Below are positions 2,452 to 39,744 of a stretch of DNA of 44,020 nucleotides, piece by piece. Every line of letters starts with the position of its first letter. The first letter of the stretch is position 1. The translations under genes were made by a program, and so were the position numbers. The stretch comes from Chiloscyllium plagiosum (Eukaryota), in contig NC_057759.1 of NCBI RefSeq assembly GCF_004010195.1, positions 900,112 through 944,131 on the forward strand. The letters run 5' to 3'. A model generated the notes under the pieces. It was not told the DNA's origin and ran no database searches. It was given only the letters and a program-made list of their open reading frames with translations.

Positions 2452-2651
2452 GGATTTGGACATGCCGGTGTTGGACTGGGGTTTACAAAGTTAAAAATCA
2501 CACAACACCAGGTTATAGTCCAACAGGTTTAATTGGAAGCACATTAGCTTTTGGAGCGACGCTCCTTCATCAGGTGATAGCCTGATGAAGGAGTGTCACT
2601 CCGAAAGCAGTGTGCTTCCAATTAAACCTGTTGGACTATAACCTGGTGTTG
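2452..2651. mobile_element. Palindromic non-autonomous Penelope-like terminal-repeat insertion (copy 1)
   Basis: Arms of about 80 bp (cacacaacaccaggttatagtcc...catcagg / cctgatg...ggtgttgtgtg), flanked by the 11-bp direct repeat tgtgagtttta at 2441-2451 and 2652-2662. Confidence 0.8.
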
Positions 2652-3284
2652 TGTGAGTTTTAAAAGTCGTGTTGAATGAGCCTGTGAGAGTTATTGGCTA
2701 ATTTCAGTGCTTATGAAGGTAATATTAATTAGAAGCAGCGAACCATAGAAAATAGAAGCAAAAATAGTCCATTCAAACTTTTGAGCCTTCTCAGTCTTTC
2801 AATGTGATCATGACTGATCACCCAAAACAATACCCAATTTCTCCAGAATCGCGTTTAGCCAGAGGAATTTGGAAAAAATGTATTCATCCTGCTGAAACTG
2901 AAAGTGACTGGTTGACAGTGACACTCAAGATTTCTTATAGCACCTCCTATCCAAATTTGTTGCTATTCCGATAACCTGCCTTTCTTTTCTTTTATACCAA
3001 AGTGAATAATTTCTTGTTTATCCATATTATATTTTGACTATTATTCATTTTCATTCTCACTCAAAAATTGTATTCTGCTTACTACGATTTTAAACACATA
3101 AAACCATCAGTTATATAGCCGTACTAATCATGACTAATAATAATAGAAGTAAGAGTTTAAAAAAGTGAACATCATATTTACAAACATCGTATTTCTATGA
3201 AGAGAAAATCATTCACTCAAGGAACGTAATGTGAAGATATCTGCCATCCTTACCCTTCTAGAGTGGTCAAGGTTGTGAGTTTTA

Positions 3285-3485
3285 GGATTTGGACATGCCG
3301 GTGTTGGACTGGGGTTTACTAAGTTAAAAATCACACAACACCAGGTTATAGTCCAACAGGTTTAATTGGAAGCACATTAGCTTTTGGAGCGACGCTCCTT
3401 CATCAGGCTATCACCTGATGAAGGAGTGTCACTCTGAAAGCTAGTGTGCTTCCAATTAAACCTGTTGGACAAAAACCTGGTGTTG
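3285..3485. mobile_element. Palindromic non-autonomous Penelope-like insertion (copy 2, in the duplication)
   Basis: Duplicate of 2452-2651. Confidence 0.8.
3412..3446 (+). ncRNA. Minimal type I hammerhead ribozyme motif
   Basis: cac-CTGATGA-a-ggagt gtc actct-GAAA-g-CTA-gtg: stem I CAC/GUG, intact core, palindromic AGCU stem III, CUA cleavage triplet. Confidence 0.7.
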
Positions 3486-3999
3486 TGTGAGTTTTAAAAG
3501 TCGTGTTGAAGGAGCCTGTGAGAGTTATTGGGTAATTTCAGTGCTTATGAAGGTAATATTAATTAGAAGCAGCGAACCATAGAAAATAGAAGCAAAAACT
3601 TTTGAGCCTTCTCAGTCTTTCAATGTGATCATGACTGATCATCCAAAACAATACCCAATTTCTCCAGAATCGCGTTTAGCCAGAGGAATTTGGAAAAAAA
3701 TGTATTCATCCTGCTGAAACTGAAAGTGACTGGTTGACAGTGACACTCAAGATTTCTTATAGCACCTCCTATCCAAATTTGTTGCTATTCGATAACCTGC
3801 CTTTCTTTTATTTTATACCAAAGTGAATATTTTCTTGTTTATCCATATTACATTTTGACTATTATTCATTGTCATTCTCACTCAACCTGTCCAATTTACA
3901 CTGAAGCATCGCTGCATCTTCCTTATAATTTACAGCTTTGTATCATAACACATAAACAGTGTAAAGCCCATTTACAGAACACATTGATTTTTATGTGAA

Positions 4000-4101
4000 C
4001 ACTCTCTGCTCATTCCTGAAGTAGGGCCTGTGCCCGAAACGTCGAATCTCCTGTTCCCTGGATGCTGCCTGACCTGCTGTGCTGTTCCAGCAATAAAGTT
4101 T
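4000..4101 (+). mobile_element. Penelope-like 3' terminal fragment between two copies of a 108-bp direct repeat
   Basis: Same sequence as the right arm at 6683-6774. The flanks 3892-3999 and 4102-4208 are near-identical. Confidence 0.85.
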
Positions 4102-4427
4102 CAATTTACACTGAAGCATCGCTGCATCTTCCTTATAATTTACAGCTTTGTATCATAACACATAAAGAGTGTAAAGCCCATTTACAGACACATTGATTTT
4201 TATGTGAAGCTCAAGACCTTCACTTTCAGAACATAAATTGATAGATAAACTTTGACTAAAACAAAGTCATTAGAAAAGCATAAAAGTACAGATGCAGATT
4301 TGGTCAGATTTCCAAGACACTTACAAACACTTACAAAGTGAAAGACTGTGATTTTAAAAGTAACAACTACTCATTCATAACTGAAATTGCAGGATAAAGG
4401 TTCGAAATACACGTGTAGCCAAATGGA

Positions 4428-4800
4428 AATAAGACCATAGGAGCAGAAGTAGTCTATTCAGCCGATTAGGTGTGGCATATTTGGTACTCTTTTACTCTTC
4501 ATTCCTGCATTTTCCCCATAACCCTTCATTTACTGACCGCTTAAAAATTTGTCTGTCTCAACTTAAAAAAAACACTTGACTGATATGATAACCCTCTGTG
4601 GTAAAAGTTTCCACAGAAGTGCTATGCTCAGAAGAGATTCCTCCTCATCTCTACCTTAAGTATGCAATCCCTTATTCTGTGTTCATGTCTTTTAATCCTA
4701 GTACCTTCCATAAGGAGAATCCAGCTTTGTCAGTCTCCACTCCTTTGTCCAGTACCATTTGAATCCAGTATGTACCACAAAGGCCACCTCTCAGTCAAGG
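4428..4800 (-). mobile_element. CR1 LINE 3' end, decayed
   Basis: Starts ataagaccataggagcagaagtagtctattcagcc, the typical reverse-complemented CR1 tail. Similar to the pieces at 5070-5370, 9113-9530, 11765-12020 and 13575-13835. Confidence 0.6.
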
Positions 4801-5069
4801 ATTGTGAACACATTCATATGATTATCAGATAAAGCTCCGTAGGAAAGAAAACATTGTAAATTACAGGTTAAACAAAAGACAAAAAAATTGGGAACTTTTT
4901 TTTAAATCTATGAAATCTACAGCTCAAACCTGCCAGGCCCTACCAGGAATTGACAGGCACTATTTAAAAGACCCCGTAATTAAAGAATCCTCTTAATTTC
5001 TGAATCCAAAGCAATGAAGATGCGATTGAGAGCTTTAGAATAAAACCAAATCTATTGTCGGCACGTTAA

Positions 5070-5370
5070 ACAGAAACTAGGAGTAGGAATGGACCATTCA
5101 GCCCTTTGACCTATCCACTATTCAATATGATCATGAATGATCATCTATGTCAGTTTTCCCTACGTCCGCGTAACTCAGGATGCATTTAAAATCTAAAGAA
5201 CTGTATCTATGTACTGACTCGGCCTCCACATCCTTCTCTGGTAGAGAATTTCACAAGTGTAATATCTGCTGTGTTAGAATTATTTCATTATCTCAGTCTT
5301 AAATGTTTTACCTTAGCCTGAAACTGGCCATTGATTCTAGACCCCATAACTAGAGAATATATCCTGCCTG
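5070..5370 (-). mobile_element. CR1 LINE 3' end, decayed
   Basis: aggagtaggaatggaccattcagccc...gtagagaatttcacaag pattern shared with the other CR1 tails in the window. Confidence 0.6.
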
Positions 5371-6599
5371 ATGGCAAGATCACAGTCACGAGTTAGGTGG
5401 TTGAGTCAGCGTTCATCAAAAGCAATGAGCCAAAGTGCCTTTTCCTCTACTCAAGTTTTCTCTGATTCTAAATCCCACAATTGATTTACTGCACAGCAGA
5501 CAGGTACATGATATATCCCTCACTCACATTACTGAAGATGAAAGTTCAGACTCAAATATACACCCCCATTCAACATATTACTTTTACAGATAACTGAGAT
5601 CTCCTTTCAAATTTACTTCTTAATTTTCGGCTGGCTATTGTGAGGTCGATTGTGCAGTCCCAATATGCTGATCATCCTGTTCTTATTTCTCAGTTCCACT
5701 GGATGTTCTCTAAAAAATATCATCCCTAAAAACAGTCGTATTGATTACCCTGACAAAAAAACCTCTCCCCCTCTTCTCTTGCCCCTCCCACTTACTATCC
5801 TTCACATAGCATCTGTAGCCTGGAATATTGAACTGTTATTAGTCCTGTTCATCCCTGAGCTCCGTTTTGTAATAGCCATGGTGTCCCATTCCCATCCTCC
5901 CAACCATGTCCTGAATTTATTTACCTTAATTGTTATGCCTCATACATTGAATTAAAGCAGCCTAATTAATTAACCCTTCTTCATTCTCTGAATTGCTCCT
6001 GCCTGCTTTGATTATTTTACTTGCTTCTTTTCTCAACTGCAACAGACTCAGACAGATCTCTTTTCACAATAGCTCTCTGGTTCCCAGCACCAACACTGCC
6101 CTCACCCCATCCCGAAACCCCACCCTGCTCTGACTATGAGGGCCTCAAGCAAACTTCCCTGCAAACGCATTAATCCCCTTCCTTCTCAGATGTAACCACT
6201 CTCGTTCTACAGGTCTCATCTATTCCAGAAGACCTTCCTATGGTCCAAACATGTGCGTTCATGCTTCCTGCACCAGCTCTTCAGCCACACATTCAACTGT
6301 TCTATCCTCCTATTTCTACTCTCAGTAGCACGGGGCACCAGGTGTAATCCAGATATTACTAATGCAGAGGACCTACTTTTTAATTCTTTCTTATTTGCTA
6401 CGTTCTGACTTTATAACCTCGTCTTTTTATTTTCCTATACCATTGGCTCCACCCTGTTAAAGTACCTGCTTCTCCCCTTTGCGAATATTTTTCACTCTCA
6501 CCGAGATAGTCTTGACCCTGAGAGTGGGGAGGCCACACAACGTTCTGACGTCTCGCTGGCAGCCACAGAAACACCTGCCTCGGCCTCTGACGAGAGAGT

Positions 6600-6808
6600 T
6601 GAAACTTTATTGCTGGAACAGCACAGCAGGTCAGGCAGCATCCCGGGAACAGGAGATTCGACGTTTCGGGCACAGGCCCTTCTTCCTGAAGAAGGGCCTG
6701 TGCCCGAAACGTCGAATCTCCTGTTCCCTGGATGCTGCCTGACCTGCTGTGCTGTTCCAGCAATAAAGTTTCAACTTTGATCTCCAGCATCTGCAGACCT
6801 CACTTTCT
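6600..6808. mobile_element. Young palindromic Penelope-derived insertion with 16-bp TSD
   Basis: Near-perfect arms of about 88 bp centred near 6686. TSD cctctgacgagagagt (6584-6599) / cctctgatgagagagt (6809-6824). Confidence 0.9.
6683..6716 (+). ncRNA. Minimal type I hammerhead ribozyme motif
   Basis: ttc-CTGAAGA-a-gggc ctgt gccc-GAAAC-GTC-gaa: intact core, 4-bp stem II, palindromic ACGU stem III, GUC triplet, stem I UUC/GAA. Confidence 0.8.
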
Positions 6809-7004
6809 CCTCTGATGAGAGAGTCCCCTGTCACAATTAATCGCTTGGAACCTGAAGTACCCCTTGGTATAGTAGAGACAGTCTGGGTAACAGAAACGTA
6901 GTTATCAGTGCCACATTCTCCTGAGATTACATCACCCCTTACTTTTACCATAACAGCATACTTATTTGAAATGGCGATAGCCTCAGGAGACCCCTGCACT
7001 CTCG

Positions 7005-7197
7005 AGGAGGAAGGGAGGACTGCAGATGCTGGAGATCAGCGTCAAAAAATATGGCGATGGAAAAGCAGAACAGGTCAGGCAACATCCAAGGTGCAAAACA
7101 GTCGCCATTTTGAACAAAACCCTTCATCACGAATGTTCGAGTCCCCTGCTGCTCGGATGCTGTCTGACCTGCTGTCCTCTTCCACACTGTTCGACTC
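7005..7197. mobile_element. Older degenerate palindromic Penelope-derived insertion
   Basis: ctgcagatgctggagatcag...caggtcaggcaacatcc...ggatgctgtctgacctgctg, with cctgcact repeated on both sides. Confidence 0.7.
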
Positions 7198-8794
7198 CTG
7201 CACTACCTGCCTCCCTCTCCTAGCTTTCCCAGAGATAACCTCACTAACTGCATCTGTGTTTTTCTACCTTCTTGAATCTGCCATCCATCACATTGCCAGC
7301 TCCTATAAATTCCTCATTACCTCAACTTGCCACTGCAATAGAGCACATCATTCAAAGGCCATGTTTGCGCCTAACCTACCGGTTCAGAAAATACCAAGTC
7401 TTACTTCTCGAGGATAACTTAAATACTTATATTTTATACTTGAACAGTTAATCAAGAGACAGATCTCAATAAAATATATTTTAAAAATGCATTCAGCGCA
7501 CTCACTGCTATAGATTTACAACAAAGACAAACATTAGGATTTTAAAATATATATCAATTTCAATACAAGCATTTAGCTCAGATTGGGAAATTCTGAAACT
7601 CCCAGCTGTGAGTAGTTCTGATATTGAAGTCTCTGTAAGGCAGCTGTGAAATTTCACTGTGTGTTTGTTTTTTTTTGAACCAGAGTCTATTTGCAGAGAA
7701 GCTTGTAAATTCACAGTCAGTCAGCTATGAAAGTTGACTACTTGATCGTTTTGACTTTTTTTTTGTTGATCTCTAGACCCATTCCTCGACGTCCCACGTG
7801 GTCTCTCCCGAAACTATGACTCCTGCTCTGTCTGCTTCCTCCTCTTTAAAATACTTACGATTTTTTCTTATTTTTGTAAAGTTCAAACAATAAAGCAAAA
7901 CCTTAAATACGCTAATTACTGCTCCAAGGAAATCAGCTTCATCAGTGGAAAAAAAAACCTTCAAGAAGAGCATCTCTTACAGCCACGATTCTCCCTTGTC
8001 CACCATAGGTGGAAAGTTGACAGATTAAAAAATACCACAAACAATTCCTTAGGGTTGGTCTCCTTTTGCCTTCCGTTGCCCAACCGTTACACAATGCACA
8101 CAGTCAGTTCCCTTTCAGTTCAATGGTATTGCTTGTGCAAGTGGAGTCCTGTCACACTGCTGCTAGTGAGACTGGCATGGAAGAGTGGCGTGCAACTAAC
8201 ATTACTCAGAACACTGAGTATTTTTCGAAGCTGCTTTTGGCAAAAGAATTCTCTCTCATTCTGTGCATCAGGCAAACTCTGGTATTAACGCCAGAGGCTT
8301 TGATCCCCTCCGAGACTGACATGATTTTATATTCTTTTAATAGCAGATGACTCACTGGGGCATTCATGCTTCTCGGATGTCACTATCACTATTACTTCAG
8401 TCCCTTCATTTGCAAATGTGAGTTTCAAAAGAATAAAGGCGCATTATTCCATTGGCCTCCCAATAAGTCCCTGGGGCATGGTTTTGTGCCCTGATGTTGT
8501 TTAGAACAGATGACTAATGTTGTCTTTGAAATGCAGTTTGTTGTGGTCCCAGCACATGGTTGTGTTCAAAGACCAAACACAGGAAAACAGGACAGGCAAA
8601 TACAATTAATATTTTCTGAACTGCTGTGCGTTACGTTTTGACTAACCATAAAGAAAAGAAGCCAATACAGTGAGTTTGGAACTTTGAATCTTAGCCCATT
8701 TATAAATAGGACAATTTTAGTTCTGACTGTGGATTGGAACTAAATGCATTGCCAAGCACTTACACCAAAACATGTATCTGTATTGTAATGATTT

Positions 8795-9020
8795 TATCAG
8801 GAAGGCTAATGGCGCCTTTGCGATTATTTCAAGGGGGTTGGAGTATAACAGCATGGAAGGCTTACTGCAACTGTACACAGTGCTGGGGAGACCGCATCTG
8901 CAGGACTGTGAGCAATTTTGCTCCCCTAATTTACAATTTCTTTGAAGGCAATTCAGAGAATGTTCACTCGAATGATCCCGGGTATGAAGGGATTTTTTTC
9001 ATCAGCAATAGCTAAACAGG
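8795..9020 (+). mobile_element. CR1 ORF2 C-terminal fragment
   Basis: Reads ANGAFAIISRGLEYNSMEGLLQLYTVLGRPHLQDCEQFCSP, homologous to the RPHLEYCVQFWSP motif in 17045-18061. Confidence 0.75.
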
Positions 9021-9112
9021 TTGGGGCAGATATTAAAAGCGCTGCAGATATTCAACTGGTCTGGCAGAGTCTGTAGAGATTTAAAAGCAGAGTTAACATT
9101 TGTGTCGCTAAA

Positions 9113-9530
9113 ATCATAAGAATTAGGATCAGGATTAGACCATTCGCACAATCGAGAGTCCCCCATCATTCAATAAGATCATGACTGATCCAATATTTCT
9201 TGTGTCCACTTTCCTGCCATTTCCCAATAACCTTTGATTCCCTGACGAAAAGAAACTATCAATGGTCGCCTTAAATATACTTAAAGACTCTGCTTCATAG
9301 CTCTCTGTGGTAAAGACTCTTCACCCTCTGACAGGATAAATTTCTCCTCATCTTAGTCCATAATTGGTGCCCCTTTATTTTGAGAATGTGCCATCTAGTC
9401 CTAGACTGTCCTGTGAGGGAGAAATATCTGCTCAGCATTGACCCTGCTGAGCCCGCGTATGTTTCAATGAGATCACTTCTCATTCGACTAAACTCCCATG
9501 AGTTGAGGCCCGCTCCATTAGAACTCTGAT
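9113..9530 (-). mobile_element. CR1 LINE 3' end
   Basis: ORF 9295..9483 reads MRSDLIETY...TRWHILKIKG, the CR1 ORF2 C-terminus. Confidence 0.75.
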
Positions 9531-9570
9531 CTTGAAGACAACTATAGCCAGAGTATGTTGTGACCTGTCC

Positions 9571-12877: not shown

Positions 12878-13002
12878 CCTGAAGAAGGGCTTATGCCCGA
12901 AACGTCGATTCTCCTGTTCCTGGATGCTGCCTGTCCTGCTGCGCTTTTCCAGCAACACATTTTCAGCTCTGATCTCCAGCATCTGCAGCCCTCACTTTCT
13001 CT
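12878..13002 (+). mobile_element. Penelope-like 3' terminal repeat starting at a hammerhead core
   Basis: CTGAAGA-agggc ttat gccc-GAAAC-GTC (12879-12906), followed by ...gatctccagcatctgcagccctcactttctc. Confidence 0.85.
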
Positions 13003-13835: not shown

Positions 13836-13889
13836 CACACAGAAAGTGCTGGAGAAAGTCAGCAGATATTGCAACATCTGTAGAGAGAG

Positions 13890-14402: not shown

Positions 14403-14880
14403 TGTTGTGGTTCTGTTCGCCGAGCTGGAAGTTTTTGTTGCAAACGTTTCGTCCCCTGGCTAGGCGACATCATCAGTGCTTGGGAGCCTCCTGCGAAGTG
14501 CTTCTTTGATGTTTCCTCCGGTGTTTATAGTGGTCTGTCCCTGCCGCTTCCGGTTGTCAGTTTCAGCTGTCCGCTGTAGTGGTTGGTATATTGGGTCCAG
14601 GTCGATGTATTTGTTGATGGAGTTTGTGGATGAATGCCATGCCTCTAGGAATTCCCTGGCAGTTCTCTGTCTGGCTTGCCCTATGATAGTAGTGTTGTCC
14701 CAGTCGAATTCATGTTGCTTGTTGTCTGCGTGTGTGGCCACTAAGGATAGCTGGTCGTGTCGTTTCATGGCTAGTTGATGTTCATGTATGCGGATTGTTA
14801 GCTGTCTTCCTGTTTGTCCTATATAGTATTTAGTGCAGTCCTTGCATGGTATTTTGTACACTACATTCGTCTTGCTCATT
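14403..14880 (-). mobile_element. 5'-truncated Penelope-like element (Poseidon/Penelope-type) with open GIY-YIG endonuclease frame
   Basis: NVVYKIPCKDCTKYYIGQTGRQLTIRIHEH...AREFLEAWHS..SINK, an uninterrupted GIY-YIG domain followed by a terminal repeat with a hammerhead motif. Confidence 0.92.
14440..14479 (-). ncRNA. Minimal type I hammerhead ribozyme motif
   Basis: Minus strand gca-CTGATGA-t-gtcgcc tagcca ggggac-GAAAC-GTT-tgc: stem I GCA/UGC, ACGU stem III, GUU triplet. Confidence 0.75.
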
Positions 14881-15109
14881 CTAAAAACAAACCTAGATTT
14901 CTCAGGGAAATGGATAAACACACTCTCAAATGTGGAATGTACAATCAGCTTTTTTTCCTCAAGTTTGTTCCTCAAATTTATAATAGCATATAATACAGCA
15001 TTTCAAATTTGACAAATTACAATGGTTTAAACTCAATATCGTCCTTTCAATGGTCCCGGTGTAACTACAGAAAATGGAGTGTTGAAGAGGCAGCCATAAC
15101 TGGGACTCA

Positions 15110-15184: not shown

Positions 15185-15765
15185 GATTCTGCCAACTTGT
15201 GGAACCTTTCAGACAACATCTCTGGGAGACCCACACTAAACAACCCCACCGCCCTGTGGCTGAAAACATTAGCTCCCCCATCCATTCCATCAAGGGCGTG
15301 GAAGTCCTGGTCCCCCTCTGCTGCCAAACACTAGCCACCGGACACCTGGAGCAAGGCCTCCTCATCTTTCGCCTTGGGACTCTCCAACCATACACGATTT
15401 CACGAGTTTCTTCATTTGAACTCCCTCCACCAACTCAGATCACACTCAGCACAGTCTTCTTGAACTGTCCTATCTGTCCATGTTCCTGCCCACCTATCTG
15501 CTCCACCTCCTCTCCGACCTAACACTTTCTCCCCGCCTTCATCTACCAATCCAATTCCCACCTACCTCCCCCACCCCCCACCCCCAGCCTCTTCCCTCTC
15601 CCATTTATCCATCAGTTCCCTTAGGTCATCTCCTCATTCTTGATTAAGAACTTATGCTCGAAACGTCGACTGTCCTGCTCCTCGGATGCTGCCTGGCTGG
15701 CTGTGCATTTGCAGCACCGTACTCTTCGACTCAACTCTTCAGCATCTCCACTCTTCACTTCTTTC
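15185..15765 (+). mobile_element. Penelope-like (Neptune-type) 3' fragment: GIY-YIG end, C-rich UTR, terminal repeat
   Basis: LVEPFRQHLWETHTKQPHRPVAENISSP...EQGLLIFRLGTLQP, with a decayed hammerhead at about 15636-15672. Confidence 0.85.
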
Positions 15766-19308: not shown

Positions 19309-19309
19309 T

Positions 19310-19436
19310 GAGGAGAATATATGGACTGCAGATACTGGAGATCAGAATCGAAGAGTGTGGTGGTGGAAAAGCACAGTCTTTCAGGCAGCACCCGATCAGC
19401 AGGAGAATCGACGTTCCGAAAATAAGCCCTTCATCC
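19310..19436 (-). mobile_element. Penelope-like terminal repeat fragment
   Basis: Diverged reverse complement of 12878-13002. Confidence 0.75.
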
Positions 19437-19439
19437 TCA

Positions 19440-22400
19440 AGTTTTGCTGCCAGTTAGTGAGAGTTTTCTGTTAACTTTTGATGCACAGTTGTGACTGTCT
19501 GGCTGTGAGAGTGAAAAGTTAGACAGCAGGACTTCCTTTTAAATATCAAAAGGGTCAGATTGTTTCATTCCGCCAGACTGGGAAGGATGCAGAACAAGAA
19601 AAACAAAATTGAATGTCTTGCTGAGTTAGAGTTTTGTCAAAGGGAGTGTTTGATGGACGATGTCTACACTGGAACAGTTGATGATTAGTTGTTAAAAAAT
19701 ACATTACCTTGCTAAGTACTTCAATTGATTTAAAGTTGTGTCTTCTGTTGGTATATTAACTGTGCAATAAGCATAAAATGTGTTTTTATTAAAGACTCAT
19801 CGTGGACCACTGAATCATAACTGGAAGCTACTACATTTAAATAAATGAAAAACTTACAGTCTAGGCTATGTAATGAAAACAATTTGGGGGATATGGGTTC
19901 TGGTCTGGTCTATAACAAAACGGGAATCTGGTCTGGAATCAATGTCTCTAATTCAAGATTGGAGTCTGGACTTTTGAATATAAAGACCTTTAGTGGTCCG
20001 GGTTGGAACTCTATTTTCTTGCGTAGATTTCGCCTGATTCATACGGTTAGTGCCTTGAAAAAGTCAGTAGAAATGTCGGCTTACTTGTAAAACGTGATGA
20101 AGGCAGACATTCTTAAATTGGCAAATAAGCTGGAGATAGAGTTGCCTGTCTTCACATGGAAAGAGGGGGGTTATTGCTGCAACAGATTAGCGTTTGGAAT
20201 TGCCAGAAATGCATGCAGAGCTATTAAAAATAGCTAAAATTCATTTGCAAATGAAACCGCTTGAATTCCAAGCGAAAGCAAGGGGAAAGCAAAAGAATGA
20301 ATAACCTAAACGTAAAAATACAGAAACAAACAAATAAACGTAAAAGAAGGAATGGAGGAAGACAGAACTGGAAAGTCAAGACCGACTTAACAAAGTGGGA
20401 GGTAAAATTAACAGTTGGGAGTAGTGACGAGAGCAACGATGAACAGGAAAACTATCGTAACCAAAAGACTGCATGGGATCTGTTTAAATACACATAAATG
20501 CTGTCAAGGTTCGAATAGAGGGAATTGTTTTTTTTCCAGTTCGTTTGAGAAAATGGCTAGATAAATCAAATGTCCACTGAATATTTGGATATTGTTGATT
20601 GAAATAAAATTTGGGAGGTAGTGCAAATGTGGTGGTTGCCTCACCGAAATGGCAGGTAGCTGTGAAGCATGATGAGGCGAAAGAAAGAAATGATTTTAAG
20701 CGTTTATGAAGTCATTCCAGAAGTTTACAGACAATGTCTTTGTAATCTAAAGAAGGAATTTGCTCAGGCATACACAAAATTTGAAAATTTCAAACAATGT
20801 AACTTTGAAAGCTGGATAAAGTCATTGAAAATAGTTCAGATTGCATGACCAACTTAGCGAGACTGTTACTTTAGAGAAGTTCAAATAATCATTGCCTGAA
20901 CCGGTAAGAAGCTCTGTGGAAGTGCAAAGGGTTGAAACAACAAGTTTCTCTGCAGAGATGAAAAATGATAATGAGCTTGTTCATTGCTTAAAGTTTTACC
21001 ACAGGAATTTCAACCAGTCATGGCCAGAAATTGTGGTAAAGAGACAACCTCAGGTGGTAAAGGAAAATAAGACAACTATGATGACAGCAAGAATAGGTTA
21101 CCACAGGTTAAAAAAAGTAGGTGAGGGTATTAGAGAAGGAAAAAAATAGATTCTCAGATATTTTCTCTGTAATACAGTTGAAGCATGCGTCACAGTTAAC
21201 ATGATTTTAAAAAGGCACTGGGAAAACTGAAGTGTTTAAGCAGAATAAGACAGTGAGGTTTGTTAAAGCTGGAAGATAAAGCACAGGGAAAGTGGAAAAT
21301 CTGCATTTGTATGGTTATGGTTTAATCATGTGTATCAGGAAACAAGTAAATAAATTGTAATTCAACGGATATGGAGCAAAGAAATCTTTAATGGTGAGAG
21401 ACCACGAGATATCGTAATTCAGAAGATTATTGGCAGAAAAAGGTGGTAATACGTGAAATTGCACAAGGTGAGTTAAGAGAGTATAAGTGAAAAGTAATGA
21501 TGTGACAGTAGCAAAATTTTGGGATTCTCTGTTCCAAAAATACAGTTTAACCTTGTTAATGATATACCAGGAGCTGTTTCGAGGTGGGAGTGATGACTAC
21601 TGTGATTATAATGCCTGTGTAAGATCAAGCAACACAAGTGTTACAGGAAGCATATCCAGGGTTTTAATTCCTGTCTGTGTGGAAAAGGGTCAGAAAGCCT
21701 TGTGTCAAAATGGGAATTAAATTCCAAGAGTAAAATTAGGAAGGTGAAGTTCCATGATCAGACACCACTTTTTTGATCAAGTGAATGAGAAGAAGACAAA
21801 AGAACAAGCGAAAGCCAGATTGGGCAATATAGCTCAGAGAAGGCAGGTGAATTGCAACAGAGAGACGGAAAGATAAAGCATACATAGAAGACGAATCCGA
21901 GTGTATCCCGGAATGTTGCTGCCTTAAAATGACATTTTGATGAGGAAGTGGAGGCCATTATGTTTTAAGTTGGATAAACAGAAGCTCATAAACTTGCATT
22001 ATCTGTGGGTGAGAGAAAGGGGGTCTTACTAGTTACAACATGAGTTACCAGTAGGAGTAAGAAAAACTCAACCAAGATGCAAAACAATTCAGTTGCCTGG
22101 AATGATAACAACGTATTTGAATTTTAATGAACTCATCACACGTGTCAGATAATAGGGAAAACTCAGGCACTGATAAAAGGAACACCCCTAATACGCATTC
22201 CAGCAATTTGCAAGACGCATCCTTGATTGTTTAGAACCCTTCGTTAAAGCAGAAAAAAGAGTGAATAAATAGTTATTGATGGTAAAAGATATGACCACTA
22301 GATTTCCATAGGGATTTTTATTACACAATGCCACAGCTAAAGGGATTGTCAAAACGTTTCAATTTTCTTTTTTCCTGTGTGCAGATTCCCCACAGAAATA

Positions 22401-26686: not shown

Positions 26687-27960
26687 TGAAAGTGTAGAGT
26701 TGGAAAAGTGCAGCAGGTCAGGCAGCATCCGAGGTGCGGGAGAATCGATGCTTCAGGGATAAGCCCTTCATTGGAAATGAGGTTTACTGGCAGGGGGCGG
26801 CTAAAATTTAACTGGGAGGGGGGTGGGTTGAGCGGAAGTTAGCTGTGAATGTGATAGTTGGATGAGGTTGGGGAGAAAGTGATAGGTCGGAGAAGAGGAT
26901 GGGGTGAACAGATTGGAAATGGGATGTATAGATGTAGAGGGTGGTACCGATTTGGAGGCTTGAGACTGGAATGATGTTAAGGGAGGGGATATGAGGAAAC
27001 AGGTGAAATCCACGTTTTTCCTGTGTTGTTGCAGTTTGCCAAGGTGGAATATGAGGTGTTCTTCCTCCAGATGTCAGGTGGTAAGGGTGTGGTGATGGAG
27101 GAGGCTCAGGACCTGCATGTCTTTGGTGGGTGGAAGGGGCAGTTGAAGTGTTCAGCCACATGACGGTGGGGTTGGTTAGTGTAGTTGTCCCTGATATGCT
27201 CACTAAAAGGGTCCGCCAGTTGGCATCCTGTCTCCACGATGTAGAGGAGACCACATCTGCTGTAATGACGTTGATGGAAGTATAGGTAAATTTCTGTTGG
27301 ATGTGGAAGGATTCTTTTATGCATTGGACGGAGGTGAGGGGGGAGATGTATGCGCAGGCTTTGCAATTCCTGTGGTGGCAGGGGAAGGTGCCAGAATGGG
27401 ATGTGGGCAGGCAGCTGGCTTGGATCTGACGAGGGAGGAAATGGTCTCACTGGAATGTCGACAGGCGTGGGAAGGTAAATGTAAGTTTGGTGGTGGGGTT
27501 CTTTTGTAAGTGACGGAAGTGGCAGAGGATGATGCAATGGATATGGAGGCTGGTAAGGTGGATGGTGAGGTCCAGGGGCTTCTGTCATTGTTGCATTGGG
27601 AGGGGTCTGGTTCAAGGGTGGGGATGTGGAAAGAGGAGATGTGCTCGAGGCCATCGTCGATCACGTGGAAAGGGAAATTGCGAAATTGGTAGATGGAGGC
27701 CATCTGGGATATTCGAAGGTGGAATTAGTCATCCTTGGAGCAGATGCAGCTGAGGCAGAAGACTTGGGAATATAGGATGGTGTTTTTACAGAAGGTAAGT
27801 TGGGAGGAGTTGTAGTTTCGGGAGCTGTGGGAGTCGGGGGCCTTGTAGTAGATTTCCATGGTCGTTGCTCACCGGAGGTGGAGATGGAAAGATCAAGGAA
27901 GGCGAGGGAGGTGAAAGAGATTATCCAGGTGTGAAAGGTAGTCGTGAAGTTGGTGAAGTT
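26687..27960 (-). mobile_element. Penelope-like element, left inverted arm (RT end, GIY-YIG, terminal repeat)
   Basis: ORF 27106..27654 contains SRCGLLYIVETGCQLADPFSEH..RHVAEHFN. The terminal repeat is at 26687-26780. Confidence 0.88.
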
Positions 27961-29514
27961 AAACCTTCAACAACTTCTTCCAATCGTCCCACTTTCTCCA
28001 AACCAAATGGGAAGCCACAGGCACCCGCATGGGACTCAGCTATGCCTGCCTCTTCATCCACTATGTGGAACAGTCCATCTAGCGCAGCTACATTGGCTCC
28101 ACCACCAGCCCTCCTCTGCTACATTGATGACTGTATTAGTGCTACCTCATGCTCCAGCTAGGAAGTTAAACAGTTTACCAACTTCTGCAACACTTTTTAC
28201 TCGACCTCAAATTCAACTGGACTATATCGGAACCTCCCTTCCATTCTTGGACATCGCCATCTCCAAATCTGGTGACCAACTTACCATGGATATCTACTAC
28301 AAACCCATTGACTCTTATAGGTACCTGGACTACAGCTCCTCCCATTCTACCTCCTGTAAAAATACCAACCCTTATTCCAAATTCCTTGGCTGACGCTCCA
28401 TCTGTTCCCAGACAGACCAATACCGCCTCAGAAAATCCCAGATGGGTTCCGACTTCTAAGATCGCAATTTCGCTTCCCACATTGTCAACGATGCCCTCCA
28501 GCTCATCTCCTCCACTTTCCACAACTCCACCCTTGTACCCGACACCGTGCAATGCAACAAGGACAGAAGCATTCCGGCCCTCACCTTCCACCCCACAAGC
28601 CTCCATATACCTCGCTTCATCTTGTCCACTTCCACCACCTGCAAATGGACCCAACCAGCAAAGATATATTATCCTCCCCGCCCAATCAGCGTTCTGGAGA
28701 GACCATTCCCTCTGCAACTTCCTCGTCAAATCCATGCCCACCAACAGCACACACCCCACTCCCAGCACCTTCACCTGCCAACACAGGAATTGAAAAGCCT
28801 GCACCCATACCCACCTCACCTCCGTCCAAGACTCCAAAGGATCCTTCCACATCAGACAGAAATTTAACTGTACTTCCCCAGTATCACCGACTGCATCTGT
28901 GGCACTCGATGTGGTCTCGTCTACATCCGGGAGACAGGACGCCAGCTTGTGGATCTGTTCAGACAGCATGTCTGGGACAGCCGCACCAACCAAACACACC
29001 ATCGCGTTGCTGAATGCTTCAACGTCCCCTCCCACTCTACCAAGGACATGCAGTTCGTGAACCTCCACCATTGCCACACCTTTACCACCCGATACCTGGA
29101 GGAAAGACGCCTCGTGTTCTGCCTTGCGATACTGCAACCTCACAGGATCAATGTGGATTTCGCCAGTTTCATCATTTTCCCTTCCTCCGCATTATCCCTG
29201 TCCCAAGCCTCCAACTTCGTACCGTCCTCTTGACCTATTTGTCCCTTCTCCCATTTACGCTTTCCACCCTCCTCTGCGACCCATCACTTTTTCGCACACC
29301 TTTAATCTACATATCGGATTCTTAGCTACCTTTCCCCAGACCCACCTTCTTCCCATTTACTTCTCAGCCCACGGCTCACAAGCCTCATTCCTGATGAAGG
29401 GTTTATGACGGTAATCGATTCTATGGCTCCTCGGATGCTGCCTGAACTGCTGTGTTTTTCCAGCACCGCAGTATCGCCTCTGATCTCCAGTATCTGTGGT
29501 CCTCACTTCCTCCC
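27961..29514 (+). mobile_element. Penelope-like element, right arm (RT core, GIY-YIG, terminal repeat)
   Basis: CYIDDCI, LPFLDI..DIYYKPIDS..YLDYSSSH, RCGLVYIRETGR and VAECFN, with the terminal repeat ending cctcacttcctccc. Confidence 0.9.
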
Positions 29515-30914: not shown

Positions 30915-31744
30915 ATGATTGAAAAGTTAAGCGATATCTAAGCTTGGGTCACCACATAAATACAAGCGTTCATGGAACAACTCAGGAGCCGCAGCAAGAA
31001 GCCAAGTTCCATCACAAAAATAATTGAGAAACAAAATGCGGTACCCTAACTCCCACATCTTGTCCCACTTGGAACACAATAAAAACTGCTCATAAGAGAA
31101 TGAAATTTGCTGAAATTAAAAAAAAAGTCTGCTTCTGCTATTCATCTCTAGGTCTCTGTTTCTTAAACCACCGCTGTGAACATGCAGTCTCTTCTGGGCT
31201 CTGCTAGTCACTGAAATGTGCCTGATGGCTAAAGCAGCAGCATCAGGACAAATGGTATCCCAGGAAGTCGATTGACCCCCAGATATGAAAGAACTGAACA
31301 TTGTCTGTTGCCTCACAAAACCACGGTTCATTCCACAGCCAATACCAACTGGTTAATATATAATGCCAGGTATTTCTTTTTGAAAAAAACAACAGCTTAA
31401 CACAGTTACAGTTGGCAAAACTACAATCGCAGTTTTTTTGTCAGTGCAGTACTTATTTTTCAGATTTTGGCAGCAAATTGTGACAAATCGATCAAAGGTG
31501 AAAGTAACAGTGAACCAGACAGAACTGTCAATGGCTCCATATCGCAGAACAGCATGGGTATTACGCAAGGGGACAGACTTGAAGAAGGAAAATTGCTCCA
31601 GATAAACAATCAGAATGTGTCTCAATATCAGATCGATGATAAGTGCGAGTAAATATGCTGCAGTCATTGCTACGAGATAGCGAATAATACAATGAGAAAG
31701 ACTACACACTCTTTGGCACAGGATGAACATTGTAAATAAATTAA
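30915..31744 (-). pseudogene. GPR139/GPR142-like class A GPCR pseudogene, main coding exon
   Basis: Acceptor tttttctttcccacag at 31745+, then (V)NLFTMFIL..C..S....RYLVAM, SVWFTVTFTFDRFVTICCQNLKNKYCT, IPFVLMLL, RDLEMNSRSR, ISANFILL* and LLSCSMNACIYVVTQ. Multiple frameshifts, deletions and stops. Confidence 0.88.
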
Positions 31745-33002: not shown

Positions 33003-33255
33003 GCAAAATTGAGGACTGAAGATGCTGGAGATCAGAGTCAAGATTAGAATAGTGTTGGAAAATCACAGCAGGTCAGGCAGTATCCGAGGAGCAGGAAAAT
33101 CAATGTCTCAGACAGGAGCCGTTCATCAGGATGACGCGATTCCTGATGAAGGGCTGCTGCCCGAAACATCGATTTTCCTGCTCTTCGGATGCTGCCTGAC
33201 CTGGTGTGATTGTCCAGCACCACTCTCATCTTGCCACTTATTTTTTTTCTGCAGT
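33003..33255. mobile_element. Palindromic Penelope-derived insertion with hammerhead motif
   Basis: Inverted arms centred near 33135. CTGATGA-agggc tgct gccc-GAAAC-ATC at 33143-33170. Confidence 0.82.
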
Positions 33256-34724: not shown

Positions 34725-35245
34725 CTTCAATGGAAAGTGGGAACATCTCTGAGACACATGCAACAACTAACCACAGTGTCCTGTGGCCAACTTCAACTCC
34801 CCTCCCACTCTACCAAGAGCATGCAAATCCTGGGCCTCCTCCACTGCCAAATCCAAGCCTCCTAACGGCTGGAGGAAGAATGCCTTATCTTCCACCTTGA
34901 GACCCTCCAACCACATATCGCTGATTTCACCAGTTTCCTTATCTCGCCTCCTCCCACCTTATCCCAGATCCAACCCTCCAAATCGGCGCAGCACTCTTGA
35001 ATTGTCTTATGTGTCCATACTCCTTCCAAACTATCAACTCCACCCTCCCCTGCGACCTACAACTATCACCCCCACCTGTTTCTAACCATTGCCCACCCCG
35101 TGAACTTACCCACGCCCTCAAACACACCCTCCTGTCTTTTTTTCTCTCAGTCCCCTTCACTGTCCACACCTACATCCCTGATGACGAGCTTATGGACGAA
35201 ATGTCGACTTTCCTGCCCCTGGGAGGCTTCCTGACCATCTATGCT
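34725..35245 (+). mobile_element. Penelope-like (Neptune-type) 3' fragment
   Basis: cctgtggccaacttcaactcccc...ggctggaggaagaatgcctt, homologous to 15185-15765 and 28950-29514, with a decayed hammerhead at 35178. Confidence 0.8.
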
Positions 35246-35247
35246 TT

Positions 35248-35371
35248 TCAAAGTTTGTGCGAAGATTTGTAGCTCGGGTGAACGTTGTTGTGGTTCTGTT
35301 CGCCGAGCTGGAAGTTTATGTTGCAAACGTTTCGTCCCCTGGCTTAGCGACATCATCAGTGCTTGGGAGCA
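35248..35371 (-). mobile_element. Poseidon-type PLE terminal repeat with hammerhead motif (35323-35362)
   Basis: Near-identical to 14403-14488. Minus strand gca-CTGATGA...GAAAC-GTT-tgc. Confidence 0.85.
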
Positions 35372-35909
35372 TCATCTATGCTTTTGCAGGACTATACGTT
35401 TCGACTTCAGTGGAAGCAGGGCAGGATTGAGACATCACGTTGCCTTCTGGACAGTACTGTGATTCTGTGTTTCTTCCTTATCCTGCGTTTGAATTGCTTT
35501 AATAATTCAAAGGGGATTGGGAAATGAATGATTATCAGGCTGGGTTATCATTGAAGTATCAGGTTTACAGCTGAACATGGCTCTGAATCAGTTGGCCACA
35601 CATTCCAATCACGAGCAGTTAACACTGGATACAAATCCAACAGGAGACCTGAGCGCAGTAATTAACGTTTGCAGGCCATTTTATATTCATTGCGTGCAAC
35701 ACTGTGGGTGAAGTGTCATCGATGATCCGACTCATGTTCTTCAATGTACATTACGCAACCACTTGCTGATTCAGGAAATATTATTCTCTCAACGCCCGGG
35801 TTCATATGTCCATTCACAAAAAGATGGTTTCATAATAACAGATGATCTGATTGTGTTCGATTTGCTGTCTTTCTGAGCCTGCAGCGGCAGAGTGATTGGA
35901 TTGAAATGC

Positions 35910-36324: not shown

Positions 36325-36685
36325 AGAAATACGGAGAGGTACAAATACAAAGATCCTTGAAAGTGATGCCTCACAGGTGTGAAGAATGCGTTTGGCACAC
36401 TTGTTTTCACTGTTCAGACCACTGAGCACCGGACTTGGGAGATGACGCTATAGATGTATAAGACATTGATTCGGCTGCATTTGGAGGATTGCAAATAGTT
36501 CTGGTCCCCCTACTATAAGAAAAGAATTATTAAACTTGGAAGGAAGAAGAAAAAAATCGTACAAGAGTATGTGACACTGAGGCTGGAATATTTGAGTTTT
36601 TAGGAGAGATTAGAGAGGCTGAGATTTTGCTCCCAAGTATATAGGAGGCTCGGGAGTGAGCTTATAGGGGTTTGTAACATCAAAG
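36325..36685 (+). mobile_element. CR1 ORF2 C-terminal fragment, decayed
   Basis: MYKTLIRLHLEDCK*FWSPYYK. Confidence 0.75.
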
Positions 36686-38620
36686 ATACTCACGCCCAAT
36701 TTTGGATGTTGCACTGTTTAGGATGTAGCTAGGTTTATGAAATGTCCCATTTTTGGAATGTGGCCCAGTCTAGTTTAACGCTCAATTTAGGATGTCACCC
36801 AGCTTAGAATGAGGCCCAGTTTAGGATGAGGCCCAGTACAATATATGGTCCAGTTTACAATGAGACCTCGTGTGACTTCATGCCTAGTTAAGAATGAGGC
36901 CCAGTTCAGGATGAGGTCCATAATAGGATGAGGTCCAGTTTACGACAAAGCTCACTTTACAATGGGACAAGGTTACGATCTGGAAAAATAAAACCATGAG
37001 GCTCATGTTAGGGTGATGCACAGTTTGGAATGTGGCCCAGTTGAGGGTGAGGCCCAGTTGGGAAATGGCCCAGTTTAAGGTAAGGCCGAGTTTGCAATGT
37101 GGCATTGTTCAGGTTGAGGCTGAGTTTATGATGTAGCCTAGATTAGGGTGAGGTTGAATTTGTGACATGGCCTAGTTTAGGGTAAAGACCAGTTTGGGAT
37201 GCGGCCCAGTATAGGGTGAGGTCCAGTTTGGGATTTGGCCCTGTTTAGGGTGAAGCTCAGTTTGGAATATGGCACTTTTTAGGCTGAGGCTCAGTTTGAG
37301 ATGTGGCCAAGTTTAGGGTGAGGCCCACGTGGGATGTGGCCCAGTTTAGGGTGAGACCCAATTTGAGCTATGTCCCAGTAATGGGTGAGGCCCAGTTTGG
37401 AATGTGGCCCTGTTTAATGTGAGGCCTAGTAGGGATGTGGCCCAGCTTAGGGTTTTGCCCAGTTTGGAACAAAGACACATTTAGTCCGAGGCCCAGGTTT
37501 GGATGTGACCTAGTTCATGGTGAGTCTCAGTTTCGGATGTGGCCCAGTTTAAGATGAGGTCTAGTTTAGGATGAGAACCAATTTTGGATGAGGCCCAGTG
37601 TAATATATGGCCTGTTTAAAATCAGGCCCAGTTTAGGATGGGATCCAGTTTACGATGGGGACCACTTTACGATGGGGCCAAGTTTGCAATGTGAAGAAAC
37701 TGTGAATGAGGCTCACCATAGAGTTAGGCCCAGTTTGGAATGTGGCCCAGTTAAGAGTGAGGCCCAGTTTGGGATGTGGCCTAGTTCAGTTGACACCCAG
37801 TTTGGGATGTGGCCCAGTTTAGGGTGAGGTCCAGTATGAGATGAGGCTCAGTTTAGGGTGAGGCCCAATTTCTGATGTGAACCTGTTTAGTGTGAGGCCC
37901 AATTTGGGATGTGGCCTAATTCACGGTGAGGCCCAGTTTGTGATATGGCCCAAATTAGGATGAGACCCAGTTTGTGTTGTGGCCCAGTTTAGGTTGAGTC
38001 GCAGTTTGTGTTGTGGCCCAGTTTAGGGTGAGGCCTACTTCGGGACATAGCCTAGTTTATTATGAGGCCGCATTTGTGTTGAGGCCCTGTTTAGGTTGTG
38101 GCCCGGACTGGAATGTTGCCTAGTTTATGGTGAGGCTCATTTTGGGATGTAGCCTAATTTAGTGTAAGGCCCAATTTGGGATGTGGCTCAGTTTAGGGTG
38201 CAGCCAACTTTGGGGATGTGGCTTAGTTTTGTGTAAGGCCCAATTTGGGAAGTGGCCCAGTTTAGGGTGAGGCCCAGTTCGGGGTATAGCCCAGTTTAGG
38301 GGGCAGCCCACTTTAGGATGTGACTAGTTTAGTTTGAGGCCCAATTTGGGTTGAGGCCCAGTTAAGGGTGAGTCCCAGTTTGTGATGTGACTCAGTTTAA
38401 GGTGTGGCCCAGTTTGAAATGTAGCCCAGTTTGGAATGAGGCTCAGTTTAGGACAATGCCCAGTTTAGGCTGAAGCCCAGTTTAAGACAAGGTCCAGTTT
38501 AGTATGAGGCCTAGTTTGTGGTAGGACTAGTTTAGGATGTGGCACGGTTATTTTTGATTCCCAGTTTAGGATCAGCCCCAGTCTAGGATGAGGCTTAATT
38601 TAGGATGGTACTCAGCTTTT

Positions 38621-38937
38621 GGGCGGCACGGTGGCACAGTGGTTGGCACTGCTGCCTCACAGCGCCAGAGACCCGGGTTCAATTCCCGCCTCAGGCGACT
38701 GACTGTGTGGAGTTTGCACGTTCTCCCCGTGTCTGCGTGGGTTTCCTCCGGGTGCTCCGGTTTCCTCCCACAGTCCAAAGATGTGCAGGGCCAGGTGAAT
38801 TAGCCATACTAAATTGCCCGTAGTTTTAGGTAAGGGGTAAATGTAGGGGTATGGGTGGGTTTCGCTTCGGCGGGTCGGTGTGGACTTGTTGGGCTGAAGG
38901 GCCTGTTTCCACACTGTAATGTAATCTAAATCTAATC
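38621..38937 (+). mobile_element. Full-length young HE1-type V-SINE
   Basis: A box TGGCACAGTGG (38632-38642), B box GGTTCAATTCC (38676-38686), V-domain gtgtggagtttgcacgttctccccgtgtctgcgtgggtttcc, CR1-like tail gggctgaagggcctgtttcc and an (aatct)n-like end. Confidence 0.93.
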
Positions 38938-39499
38938 AATGAGGCCCAGTTTAAGGTGAGGCTCAGTATAATATCTGGCACAATTTAGGATAAGGCCTGG
39001 TGTGAGATCTGGCCTAGTTTAGAATGAGGCCCAGTTTAGGATGAAGTGCAACGTACGATGCATCCAATTTTATGATAGGGCCTAGTTGACGATCTGAAAT
39101 AAAAGTGTGACGCTCACCTTAGTGTGAGGCCAAGTTTGGAATGTGGCCCGGTTTATGGTGAGGCTCAGTTTGAGATGTGGTCTAGTTCAAGGTGAGGCCC
39201 AGTTGGGATGTGGCCCTGTTGAGGGTGAGGCCCAGTTTGGCTTGTGGCCCAGTTTAGTTTGAGGCCCACTTTAGAATGTGGCCCAGTTTAGGGTGAGGCC
39301 CTCTTGGGATCTGGCCCTGATTAGGGTGAGGCACATTTTGGAATGTGGTCCAGTTTAGGATGAGACCCCGTTTGGAATGTGGCCCAGTTTAGGGCAAGGT
39401 CCAGTTTGGACTGTGGTCCTGTATGAATGAGGCCCAGTTTGGGATATGGCCCAGTTTAGGATGAGGCCCATTTTCAGAAATCGCCTAGTATAGTGTGAA

Positions 39500-39744
39500 G
39501 CAGAAGTGGGTACTGCAGATGCAGGAGATGAGAGTCAAGGTTAGACTGGCGCTGGAAAAGCATAGCACGTCAGTCAGCACCCGAGTTGAAGGAATATCAA
39601 CTTTTCATGCAAAAAAAAACTCTTCATCAGGAATGAGACTCATCATTCCTGATTAAGGGATTTTGCCTGAAACATTGAATTTCCTCCTCCTCAGATGCTG
39701 TCTGAACTGCTGTGCTTTACCAGCACCACTCTAACCTTGACTCT
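39500..39744. mobile_element. Degenerate palindromic Penelope-derived insertion in the satellite
   Basis: Arms agagtcaaggttagactgg...catcaggaatga / tcattcctgatt...ctctaaccttgactct. Confidence 0.8.

Follow-up and report, generated by a model that had tools for sequence, protein, structure and literature searches.

We found that the hammerhead-like motifs in the 44-kb window (the whole stretch of shark DNA analyzed here) are very probably minimal hammerhead ribozymes (min-HHRs) in the end repeats of three families of Penelope-like elements (PLEs), and that the copies in the window are short and likely inert leftovers of insertion. PLE end-pieces are present as 21 arms of families A, B, and C (Table 1). 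A strict descriptor, defined as the exact core, a stem II of at least 3 bp, NN-UH, and a stem I of at least 3 bp, is passed by 4 of the 21 arms (3415+, 6686+, 14476-, and 35359-), while the remaining 17 fail.

Hammerhead motifs in the window

Cores of the form CTGAnGA...GAAA are found at 2582+, 3415+, 6686+, 12879+, 33143+, 35178+, 14476-, and 35359-, which includes the sites near 2582 and 35178 where an earlier note on this DNA had correctly placed decayed motifs. The coordinates of the six copies that it called intact were also right, and four of these pass the strict test, but at 12879+ stem I falls short of 3 bp (TAC against GAT), and 33143+ carries ACAU in place of ACGU. The four strict sites compare to a mean of 0.013 and a maximum of 1 in 300 dinucleotide shuffles and are always at the same place within the three repeat families, and the palindromic AGCU or ACGU is present at 4/4 of them and at none in the 300 shuffles. 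The core alone is modestly enriched, with 13 matches compared to a mean of 3.15 and a maximum of 9 in 300 such shuffles. We discarded the core-only matches at 1009+, 16751+, 33016+, 34433-, and 40211- since they lack stem II or NUH; these, probably including 34433-, appear to be chance matches. An Rfam search of the window returned no matches at the gathering score and, up to an E value of 5, five weak matches, none to a hammerhead family. Three of those five are miRNA models placed on the family A palindromes.

All four strict copies have a self-complementary stem III without loop III, AGCU or ACGU, as the earlier note had described, with ACGU common to three of the four (families B and C), and their best stem II has one bulge. 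An unpaired base lies between A9 and G10.1 (an extra A in families A and B, an extra U in family C), and the G10.1-C11.1 pair is G-C in 6686, 14476, and 35359 and G-U in 3415, the latter differing from the duplicate copy by a C>T change at a CpG. The stem I pairings CAC/GUG, UUC/GAA, and GCA/UGC that had been reported are present in the strict copies, but UUC/GAA is no rule for family B, in which the 3' strand, read by eye, is GAA in 4 of 15 arms and GAT, GAC, or GAG in 11. The claim of cross-family covariation stands insofar as there are three different 3-bp helices, but the pattern is a published one, and the third pair is usually mismatched within family B. We rejected a double change in stem II (C-G to U-A) between family A arms as proof of covariation, since both positions are CpG sites; among the five substitutions that separate the arms of family A copy 1, three also fall at CpG sites. 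The motifs are genuine, but they are a PLE-end motif that has already been described, and most copies are likely inert relics. The earlier note's identification of them as type I minimal hammerheads of the dimer type located at PLE ends is supported, directly for families B and C and indirectly for family A.

Copies of the three families

Table 1. Features of the three PLE families in the window
Feature	Positions	Strand	Remarks
Family A palindromic insertion, copy 1	2491..2663	.	Both hammerheads broken: 2582+ lacks U16.1, 2573- has GAAA>AAAA
Family A palindromic insertion, copy 2	3324..3497	.	Duplicate of copy 1 within 2232-3064/3065-3885
Family A minimal hammerhead	3412..3446	+	Strict pass; CAC/GUG, extra A after A9, G-U-closed stem II, AGCU
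Family A 3' signals	3455..3497	+	ATTAAA 3455-3460; poly(A) site of related copies ~3473; GU-rich 3477-3497 to element end
Family B (young subfamily) stub	4009..4101	+	Core broken (CTGAAGT)
Family B palindromic insertion	6597..6810	.	89-bp arms, 1 difference; tail on one arm only
Family B minimal hammerhead	6683..6716	+	Strict pass; predicted buried in palindrome
Decayed family B palindromic insertion	7004..7200	.	No intact hammerhead
Family B stub with tail	12878..13001	+	Core, stem II, ACGU intact; stem I not formed
Family C 3' fragment	14403..15002	-	GIY-YIG endonuclease frame, stop codon within hammerhead stem II
Family C minimal hammerhead	14440..14479	-	Strict pass; GCA/UGC, extra U after A9, ACGU; no palindrome
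Longer family B 3' fragment	15190..15760	+	Hammerhead decayed
Family B stub with tail	19310..19441	-	Begins inside core
Large head-to-head family B insertion	26687..29513	.	Linker and endonuclease remnants; both hammerheads decayed
Family B palindromic insertion	33003..33241	.	33143+: core and stem II, but ACAU not ACGU
Longer family B 3' fragment	34740..35256	+	Hammerhead decayed
Family C stub	35286..35373	-	Hammerhead 35323-35362, strict pass; 95% identical to 14403-14490
Decayed family B palindromic insertion	39500..39744	.	Inside 17/34-bp satellite

Several relations among the copies had been overlooked in the earlier note. The motifs at 2582 and 3415 are one insertion, copied by an 833-bp tandem duplication whose halves are 96% identical, and the 6-nt centre of copy 2 is the reverse complement of that of copy 1. 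At 3415, 6686, 33143, and 39649 the motif forms the right arm of a palindrome, an antisense copy lying immediately upstream of it, and further arms lie at 2573-, 3406-, 6687-, 7135-, 7137+, 19438-, 26773-, 33129-, and 39630-. The strict family A copy has a predicted cut after 3443 and is predicted to be buried in its palindrome. A search of metagenome contigs with the family A pattern gave two loci (L001 and L002), in the second of which the motif recurs downstream of a GIY-YIG-type frame, a match that the search pattern itself largely fixed and whose similarity further downstream is weak, being equalled in 102 of 5000 shuffles. It is through these contigs only, and hence indirectly, that family A appears tied to PLEs.

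In family B, the young-subfamily stub sits between 108-bp direct repeats (3892-3999/4102-4208). Among 12 insertions scanned for a target duplication, a clear one was found only at 6597-6810, which is flanked by a 16-nt target-duplication-like repeat (6584-6599/6809-6824, 15/16 identical), and imperfect ones of 12 to 14 nt were found at three. With one difference in 89 bp between its arms, the 6597 insertion is young, and family B may still be active. Long family B copies carry a cysteine linker and endonuclease remnants; in the large head-to-head insertion, the arms (26701-27912 and 28232-29462) are 73% identical, and frame 26808-27446- contains the linker CHHRNCKAC (CxxxxCxxC), with a decayed version near 28780. 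To judge from the sequence, this Zn-finger-like linker between RT and EN matches a feature of the Neptune/Nematis clade. Searches with the family B pattern gave no loci in viral contigs and none in the metagenome contigs searched.

Chiloscyllium and Hemiscyllium proteins, some of them with RT domains, share 86% identity with the family C frame, which also gives a weak Pfam match to GIY-YIG (E 0.0042, below the curated cut-off); of the 12 frames submitted to Pfam, 10 gave no match, among them every family B fragment. The homologue P0001 has an RT plus the same region as the GIY-YIG fragment, whereas no full-length PLE copy (RT plus C-terminal GIY-YIG) is present in the window. Both P0001 and a second protein, P0006, lack a cysteine linker before the EN, which would place family C in the Penelope/Poseidon clade.

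Folding, RNA reads, and rival explanations

The motifs at 3415 and 6686 lie inside fold-backs of 84 to 89 bp, and with at least 30 nt of real flank the predicted probability of stems I and II is 0.000. Such fold-back copies would be expected to base-pair from end to end, leaving the ribozyme hidden. For 14476-, the predicted stem II probability is 0.99 with 10-nt flanks and 0.15 to 0.39 with longer ones, and for 35359- it is at most 0.017 with at least 30 nt of flank. Since 14476- is outside a palindrome and keeps some stem II probability, it could fold, and we regard 14440-14479(-) as the best candidate for activity among the copies in the window. Because ACGU is common to three of the four strict copies, dimers in trans might form between abundant transcripts. 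RNAcofold of minimal motifs was rejected as evidence for active dimers, the lowest-energy forms being intermolecular stem II pairing.

The RNA evidence is from one run, X21 (about 2% of its reads), with 4276 reads mapped, nearly all on repeats; 4038 of these are less than 99% alike and hence from paralogues. A second run, X22, gave no mapped reads. We observed an RNA depth of 0 to 0.6 in unique flanks and an apparent sense excess in family C (26.4 versus 4.8) and family B (135 versus 70). No pile-up of read starts or ends is listed for this 3'-end library, which is blind to short cut products. In paralogous family A reads, which are apparently uncut, poly(A) follows ATTAAA by about 13 nt and lies 30 nt beyond the cut site. 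None of the 15 joints listed, beyond which there are 1527 more, skips 6597-6810 to give an empty site. Repeat bins reach 10^5 to 10^6 in summed contig depth compared to about 10 to 40 in the lowest unique bins, which reflects very high abundance and not copy number.

We propose that the element protein nicks DNA and then primes reverse transcription downstream of the hammerhead, at either of two internal sites, these start sites being suggested by arms with and without a 30- to 40-nt tail. Copying would usually halt at the hammerhead 5' edge, which is the arm start in 13 of 19 arms, probably since this is where the template RNA starts, and the copy would often be joined head to head with a second one in inverted orientation. 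Selection would have kept the hammerhead in those parent elements that are active, a protein-assisted dimer being its likely working form there, and the inserted copies would then decay neutrally.

The earlier note had instead suggested that copies cut read-through transcripts, and a pool of working ribozymes acting on host RNA, as tandem pairs in cis or in trans, could draw on the four arms that keep every descriptor position, on the ACGU that families B and C have in common, on partner RNAs (the X21 reads on repeats, with the apparent sense excess in C and B), and on the weak in vitro cleavage by dimers of such motifs (PMC4209133). We consider it improbable: two of the four strict copies are predicted to be sequestered, the other two are 20.9 kb apart, the predicted stem II of 35359- is nearly lost in its flanks, and the window holds no intact same-family, same-strand pair within about 20.8 kb. 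In addition, the flanks are near-silent, no read-end pile-up is listed, and family A reads apparently span the cut site. Published min-HHR monomers were inactive and their dimers weak (PMC4209133), and the anole motif required the element protein, with no RNA-seq ends at its cut site (PMC11167929). The idea of a live ribozyme pool is thus corrected, as most copies are broken and the fold-backs would silence themselves.

Less probable still is a retrozyme- or MITE-like origin, in which the stubs and short palindromes would belong to a non-autonomous family that propagates itself and moves as one unit. The 44 kb contain five short palindromic insertions (one duplicated), and the insertion at 6597-6810 is complete and bears a target-duplication-like repeat, but the centres differ (arm starts at -7/-1, -3/+2, -9/-4, and -9/-6 relative to C3, read by eye), five long arms run from the same ends into endonuclease-coding sequence, and the 2.8-kb head-to-head insertion at 26687-29513 is a larger version of this layout. 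Moreover, we found no tandem hammerhead-bearing repeats, none of 13 TRF rows overlapping a strict hammerhead. Chance matches to a short motif would suffice for the five core-only sites, given 3.15 cores per shuffle, but as an account of the strict sites, which exceed every shuffle and hold a fixed position in three repeat families, they have almost no probability.

The family A poly(A) reads and the 13 of 19 arms that start at the 5' edge hint at an LTR-like R region that holds the ribozyme. We put forward tentatively, and as rather doubtful, that the PLE "pseudo-LTR" functions in the manner of a genuine U3-R-U5 repeat whose R is occupied by the hammerhead, so that RNA would start about 5 to 12 nt before the hammerhead core and, in family A, be polyadenylated 30 nt after the cut. 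With one hammerhead at each transcript end, the full-length RNA would be a built-in cis dimer, and the final 24 nt at the genomic end, which the poly(A) site precedes, would have to be copied from the RNA 5' end. If this is true, stubs and palindromes would derive from cDNAs of a strong-stop-like kind that were inserted without having made an end-to-end jump. The palindromic stem III would then have less to do with cutting host RNA than with joining the two RNA ends. A literature search, outside of which lay most subscription papers and Repbase, found no published link of PLE hammerheads to a poly(A) site or a strong-stop step. A poly(A) site just behind the ribozyme and 5' ends just before it would make the question of function testable by end-mapping of full-length PLE RNA from a genome in which copy numbers are enormous.

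Comparison with known systems

Every feature found here, including the extra base after A9, the loop-less palindromic stem III, and the divergent families, is in the account of Cervera & de la Pena 2014 (PMC4209133), which reports thousands of min-HHRs per vertebrate genome, and our copies add shark examples, from families that its accessible text does not name, to the class described in 2014. The likeness extends to the type I core without loop III, the palindromic 15.2-16.2, the unpaired base between A9 and G10.1, the G10.1-C11.1 pair, and the presence of several divergent families per genome, mostly solo with some opposite-strand pairs. In contrast, helix I is 2 to 4 bp here compared to 4 to 5 bp in Schistosoma and 2 bp in D. 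virilis, and opposite-strand pairs are 0 to 10 nt apart compared to about 100 to 700 bp in that study. Animal non-LTR retrozymes, which a 2026 preprint defines as tandem hammerhead-bearing repeats, two or more successive units each holding a complete hammerhead (bioRxiv 10.64898/2026.07.22.740005), are PLE-derived, carry type I hammerheads, and are reported from one chondrichthyan genome. They are tandem arrays with a hammerhead per unit, whereas the copies in the window are solo or inverted.

EN+ PLE insertions are described as having an inverted pLTR, a one-sided 30- to 40-bp tail, a target duplication, and a palindrome at the inverted junction (PMC3846280, PMC8557442). Head-to-head arms with a mostly one-sided tail are likewise seen at 6597-6810, 33003-33241, 39500-39744, 7004-7200, and 26687-29513, and 6597-6810, which combines an inverted arm with both a one-sided tail and the 16-nt duplication, matches this mode of insertion. 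Unlike those insertions, most units here are 170 to 250 bp, with junctions at the hammerhead 5' edge, and the accessible text of the two papers does not tie the inverted junction to the ribozyme. One of them (PMC8557442) describes what PLE hammerheads do as still unclear. A 2947-nt Penelope transcript starts in the upstream repeat, in a report whose accessible text does not contain the word "polyadenylation" (PMC2377424).

Reverse transcription from two internal start sites has been shown for PAc, the Poseidon element of Anolis carolinensis (Frangieh et al. 2024; PMC11167929), in a study whose accessible text has no 3'-end mapping. The PAc ORF begins in stem II, whereas that of family C ends there. 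The absence of a cysteine linker before GIY-YIG in family C is as expected for Penelope/Poseidon and is shared with PAc. As proposed here, PAc has a hammerhead in the pLTR, two internal RT starts that define the tail, and nicking and extension of both DNA strands (PMC11167929).

Hammerhead motifs and palindromic insertions

The bare hammerhead core shows only a modest enrichment in the window: it matched 13 times, compared with 3.15 matches on average and 9 at most over 300 dinucleotide shuffles. A strict descriptor of the minimal hammerhead (min-HHR) matched four sites, named here by position and strand (3415+, 6686+, 14476- and 35359-), against a shuffle mean of 0.013, and the palindrome AGCU or ACGU was present in all four. 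These motifs were not detected in an Rfam search of the window. An earlier note had listed six intact copies, whose core coordinates we confirmed in the sequence; four pass the strict test, but the other two do not (Table). The UUC/GAA stem I that it gave for family B is found in 4 of 15 arms, as we call single end-pieces of Penelope-like elements (PLEs), but in most, by eye, a 2-bp helix is followed by a mismatch. Self-BLAST, alignment and profile searches identified 21 arms in the window (family A, 4; B, 15; C, 2), 17 of which have broken hammerheads under the strict descriptor.

Self-BLAST also revealed head-to-head palindromes, missed by the earlier note, in five short insertions. The motif, the family structure, the palindromes, the tail and the decay can all be read directly in the sequence. 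Both family A palindromes stem from a single insertion that an 833-bp tandem duplication has copied, so the independent arms number 19. The 6-nt palindrome centre is reverse-complemented between the duplicate copies (96% identical), with the arms unflipped; this is a micro-inversion at the hairpin apex and decides which arm has stem I. The insertion at 6597 has arms with a single difference over 89 positions; it is flanked by a 16-nt repeat (15/16 identical), and only one of its arms has a tail. This anatomy matches the PLE insertion unit in sections of PMC3846280 and PMC8557442, and the one-arm tail is explained by two internal reverse transcriptase (RT) start sites described for an anole PLE in part of PMC11167929. 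Copying would stop at the 5' end of the RNA, and we checked the clustering of arm starts by eye: 13 of 19 lie from 14 nt before to 2 nt after core position C3, one lies near GAAA, five extend into coding sequence and none is at the cut site.

Coordinates of hammerhead loci, insertions and other features (window-relative unless a contig is named)
Feature	Position	Strand	Remarks
Listed hammerhead	12879	+	no stem I
Listed hammerhead	33143	+	no palindromic ACGU
Family A palindrome centre	2575-2580, 3408-3413		duplicate copies
Short palindromes	6597-6810; 7004; 33003; 39500		in addition to family A, duplicated
Long palindrome	26687-29513		same layout, arms 1.2 kb
Family B stub	4009-4101		between 108-bp direct repeats (3892-4208, 98% identical), much longer than usual target duplications
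80-bp units	42121-42485; 13837-13910 (-); 9036-9101 (-)		about four in tandem, resembling family B end; probable fourth PLE family by similarity; no intact core, decayed core-like motif at 42103
17/34-bp satellite	36680-40032, 40747-40870		119-bp inverted copy (39738-39856/40747-40866, 91%); contains an inserted family B palindrome
GPR139-like frame	31353-31763	-	136 residues, E 1.6e-06; probably a receptor pseudogene fragment
LINE-type RT fragments	17042-18569; 25876-26319; 29514-30197; 43240-44019		RVT_1 match at 17042-18061 (E 6e-25); others by similarity or eye
Family C frame over hammerhead	14460-14476	-	crosses core, stop codon within stem II; same end point in homologue P0001
Marine-metagenome PLE	L002 1327-1400; L001 963-1050		family A hammerhead, 5-bp stem I; inverted RT fragment adjoins repeat in L001

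Coding sequences linked to the families

Long copies of family B contain a CHHRNCKAC linker and nuclease remnants, and the linker sequence fits Neptune/Nematis. The end of a 180-residue frame overlaps the family C motif at 14476-. This frame matches GIY-YIG weakly (Pfam E 0.0042, under cut-off) and shares 86% identity with proteins from Chiloscyllium and Hemiscyllium, of which some have an RT domain; 183 candidates yielded 13 hits. These homologues have no cysteine linker ahead of the nuclease, an absence that fits Penelope/Poseidon as described in part of PMC8557442, with the clade read from this feature. Family C endonuclease sequence also occurs in predicted shark host-gene isoforms (P0004, MAP3K7; P0005, 5'-nucleotidase; P0009, CUEDC2; P0011, WBP2-like), through either exonisation or annotation artefact.

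The coding part of family A is absent from the window. Its motif recurs in two marine-metagenome contigs, L001 and L002, with identity to 3411-3446 at 31 of 36 positions, most of them fixed by the search pattern itself, and in L002 the frame upstream of it is of GIY-YIG type and has a cysteine linker. Since, in addition, the downstream similarity is weak (reached by 102 of 5000 shuffles), the assignment of family A to PLEs is indirect.

Poly(A) ends behind the family A hammerhead

RNA run X21 showed loose ends at mirror positions of the two family A arms: poly-T ahead of 3346 in 330 reads, and TAC followed by poly-A after 3470 in 278. In a further 365 and 258 reads the loose ends fall at 3407 and 3408, respectively, and share an upstream sequence that comes in two variants (agreement 0.77 and 0.80). 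Loose and aligned lengths sum to 151 and 152, close to the 150 nt of a read, so both sets probably consist of the same reads, which would cross the cut site at 3443/3444 uncut and continue to the tail. Some 600 RNA reads of related family A copies have a poly(A) end about 13 nt past ATTAAA (3455-3460) and 30 nt past the cut site, ahead of a GU-rich stretch, with the genomic end of family A about 24 nt further; the top DNA loose ends among those listed (3321-3323), with 4499 further rows beyond them, were not poly-A. ATTAAA, then the site, then a GU-rich stretch is the classic order at polyadenylation sites. AATAAA is found 18 nt past the cut in L001 and L002, and at 6762 in a young family B copy.

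The poly-A reads may reflect priming on a genomic A tract, although a single such tract is less likely given that both variants end at the same site. They could also be host 3' UTRs ending in family A copies. Sections of PMC2377424 place the start of the D. virilis Penelope transcript in the upstream repeat. One tentative idea, which we consider rather doubtful, is that the PLE end is organized like a U3-R-U5 repeat and that every transcript carries a hammerhead at both ends. No statement on the hammerhead and poly(A) arrangement was found in the literature covered, which lay outside subscription papers, Repbase and supplements.

Predicted folding and likeness to known hammerheads

When the copies were folded with their real flanks, the probability of stems I and II at 3415 and 6686 was 0.000 once at least 30 nt of flank was present, since the entire motif is paired with the antisense arm (predicted minimum free energies -136 and -182 kcal/mol over some 190 nt). 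The hammerhead of these two copies is thus predicted to be sequestered by fold-back. At 35359-, the probability fell to 0.017 or less, and 14476- alone retained a stem II probability of 0.15 to 0.39; the distance between these two copies, both of family C, is 20,883 nt. In the available part of PMC4209133, min-HHR monomers are uncleaved and dimers weakly cleaved. For the anole PLE, sections of PMC11167929 describe an internal RT start and protein-assisted cleavage, with the motif cut only with the element's protein and dispensable for insertion in vitro, and with no RNA-seq ends found at its cut site.

We mapped reads from four runs to 3065-15800 at 90% likeness. None of the reads of RNA run X22 mapped. 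In X21, 4276 RNA reads mapped, 238 at 99% or more, with a depth of 0 to 0.6 over unique flanks and no pile-up of read starts or ends among those listed. These reads are weak evidence on cleavage because they come from a single sample and cover about 2% of a 3'-type library, in which 30-nt cut products would go unseen. The earlier note had proposed that some copies may be catalytic on read-through transcripts. The possible folding of 14476-, the ACGU common to families B and C and the apparent plenty of sense-strand repeat RNA speak for some catalytic copies with an effect on host RNA, a reading that we nonetheless regard as improbable; that the short units are an independent mini-element is hardly credible. 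The window copies are very probably inert PLE end-pieces, and the ribozyme would be selected in parent elements only.

The window copies do not match a retrozyme array. All five sequence features tested from the available part of Cervera & de la Pena 2014 are present in the window motifs, which are members of the PLE min-HHR class and, by likeness, would work as it does. The class was already described in 2014, and the window adds members to it.
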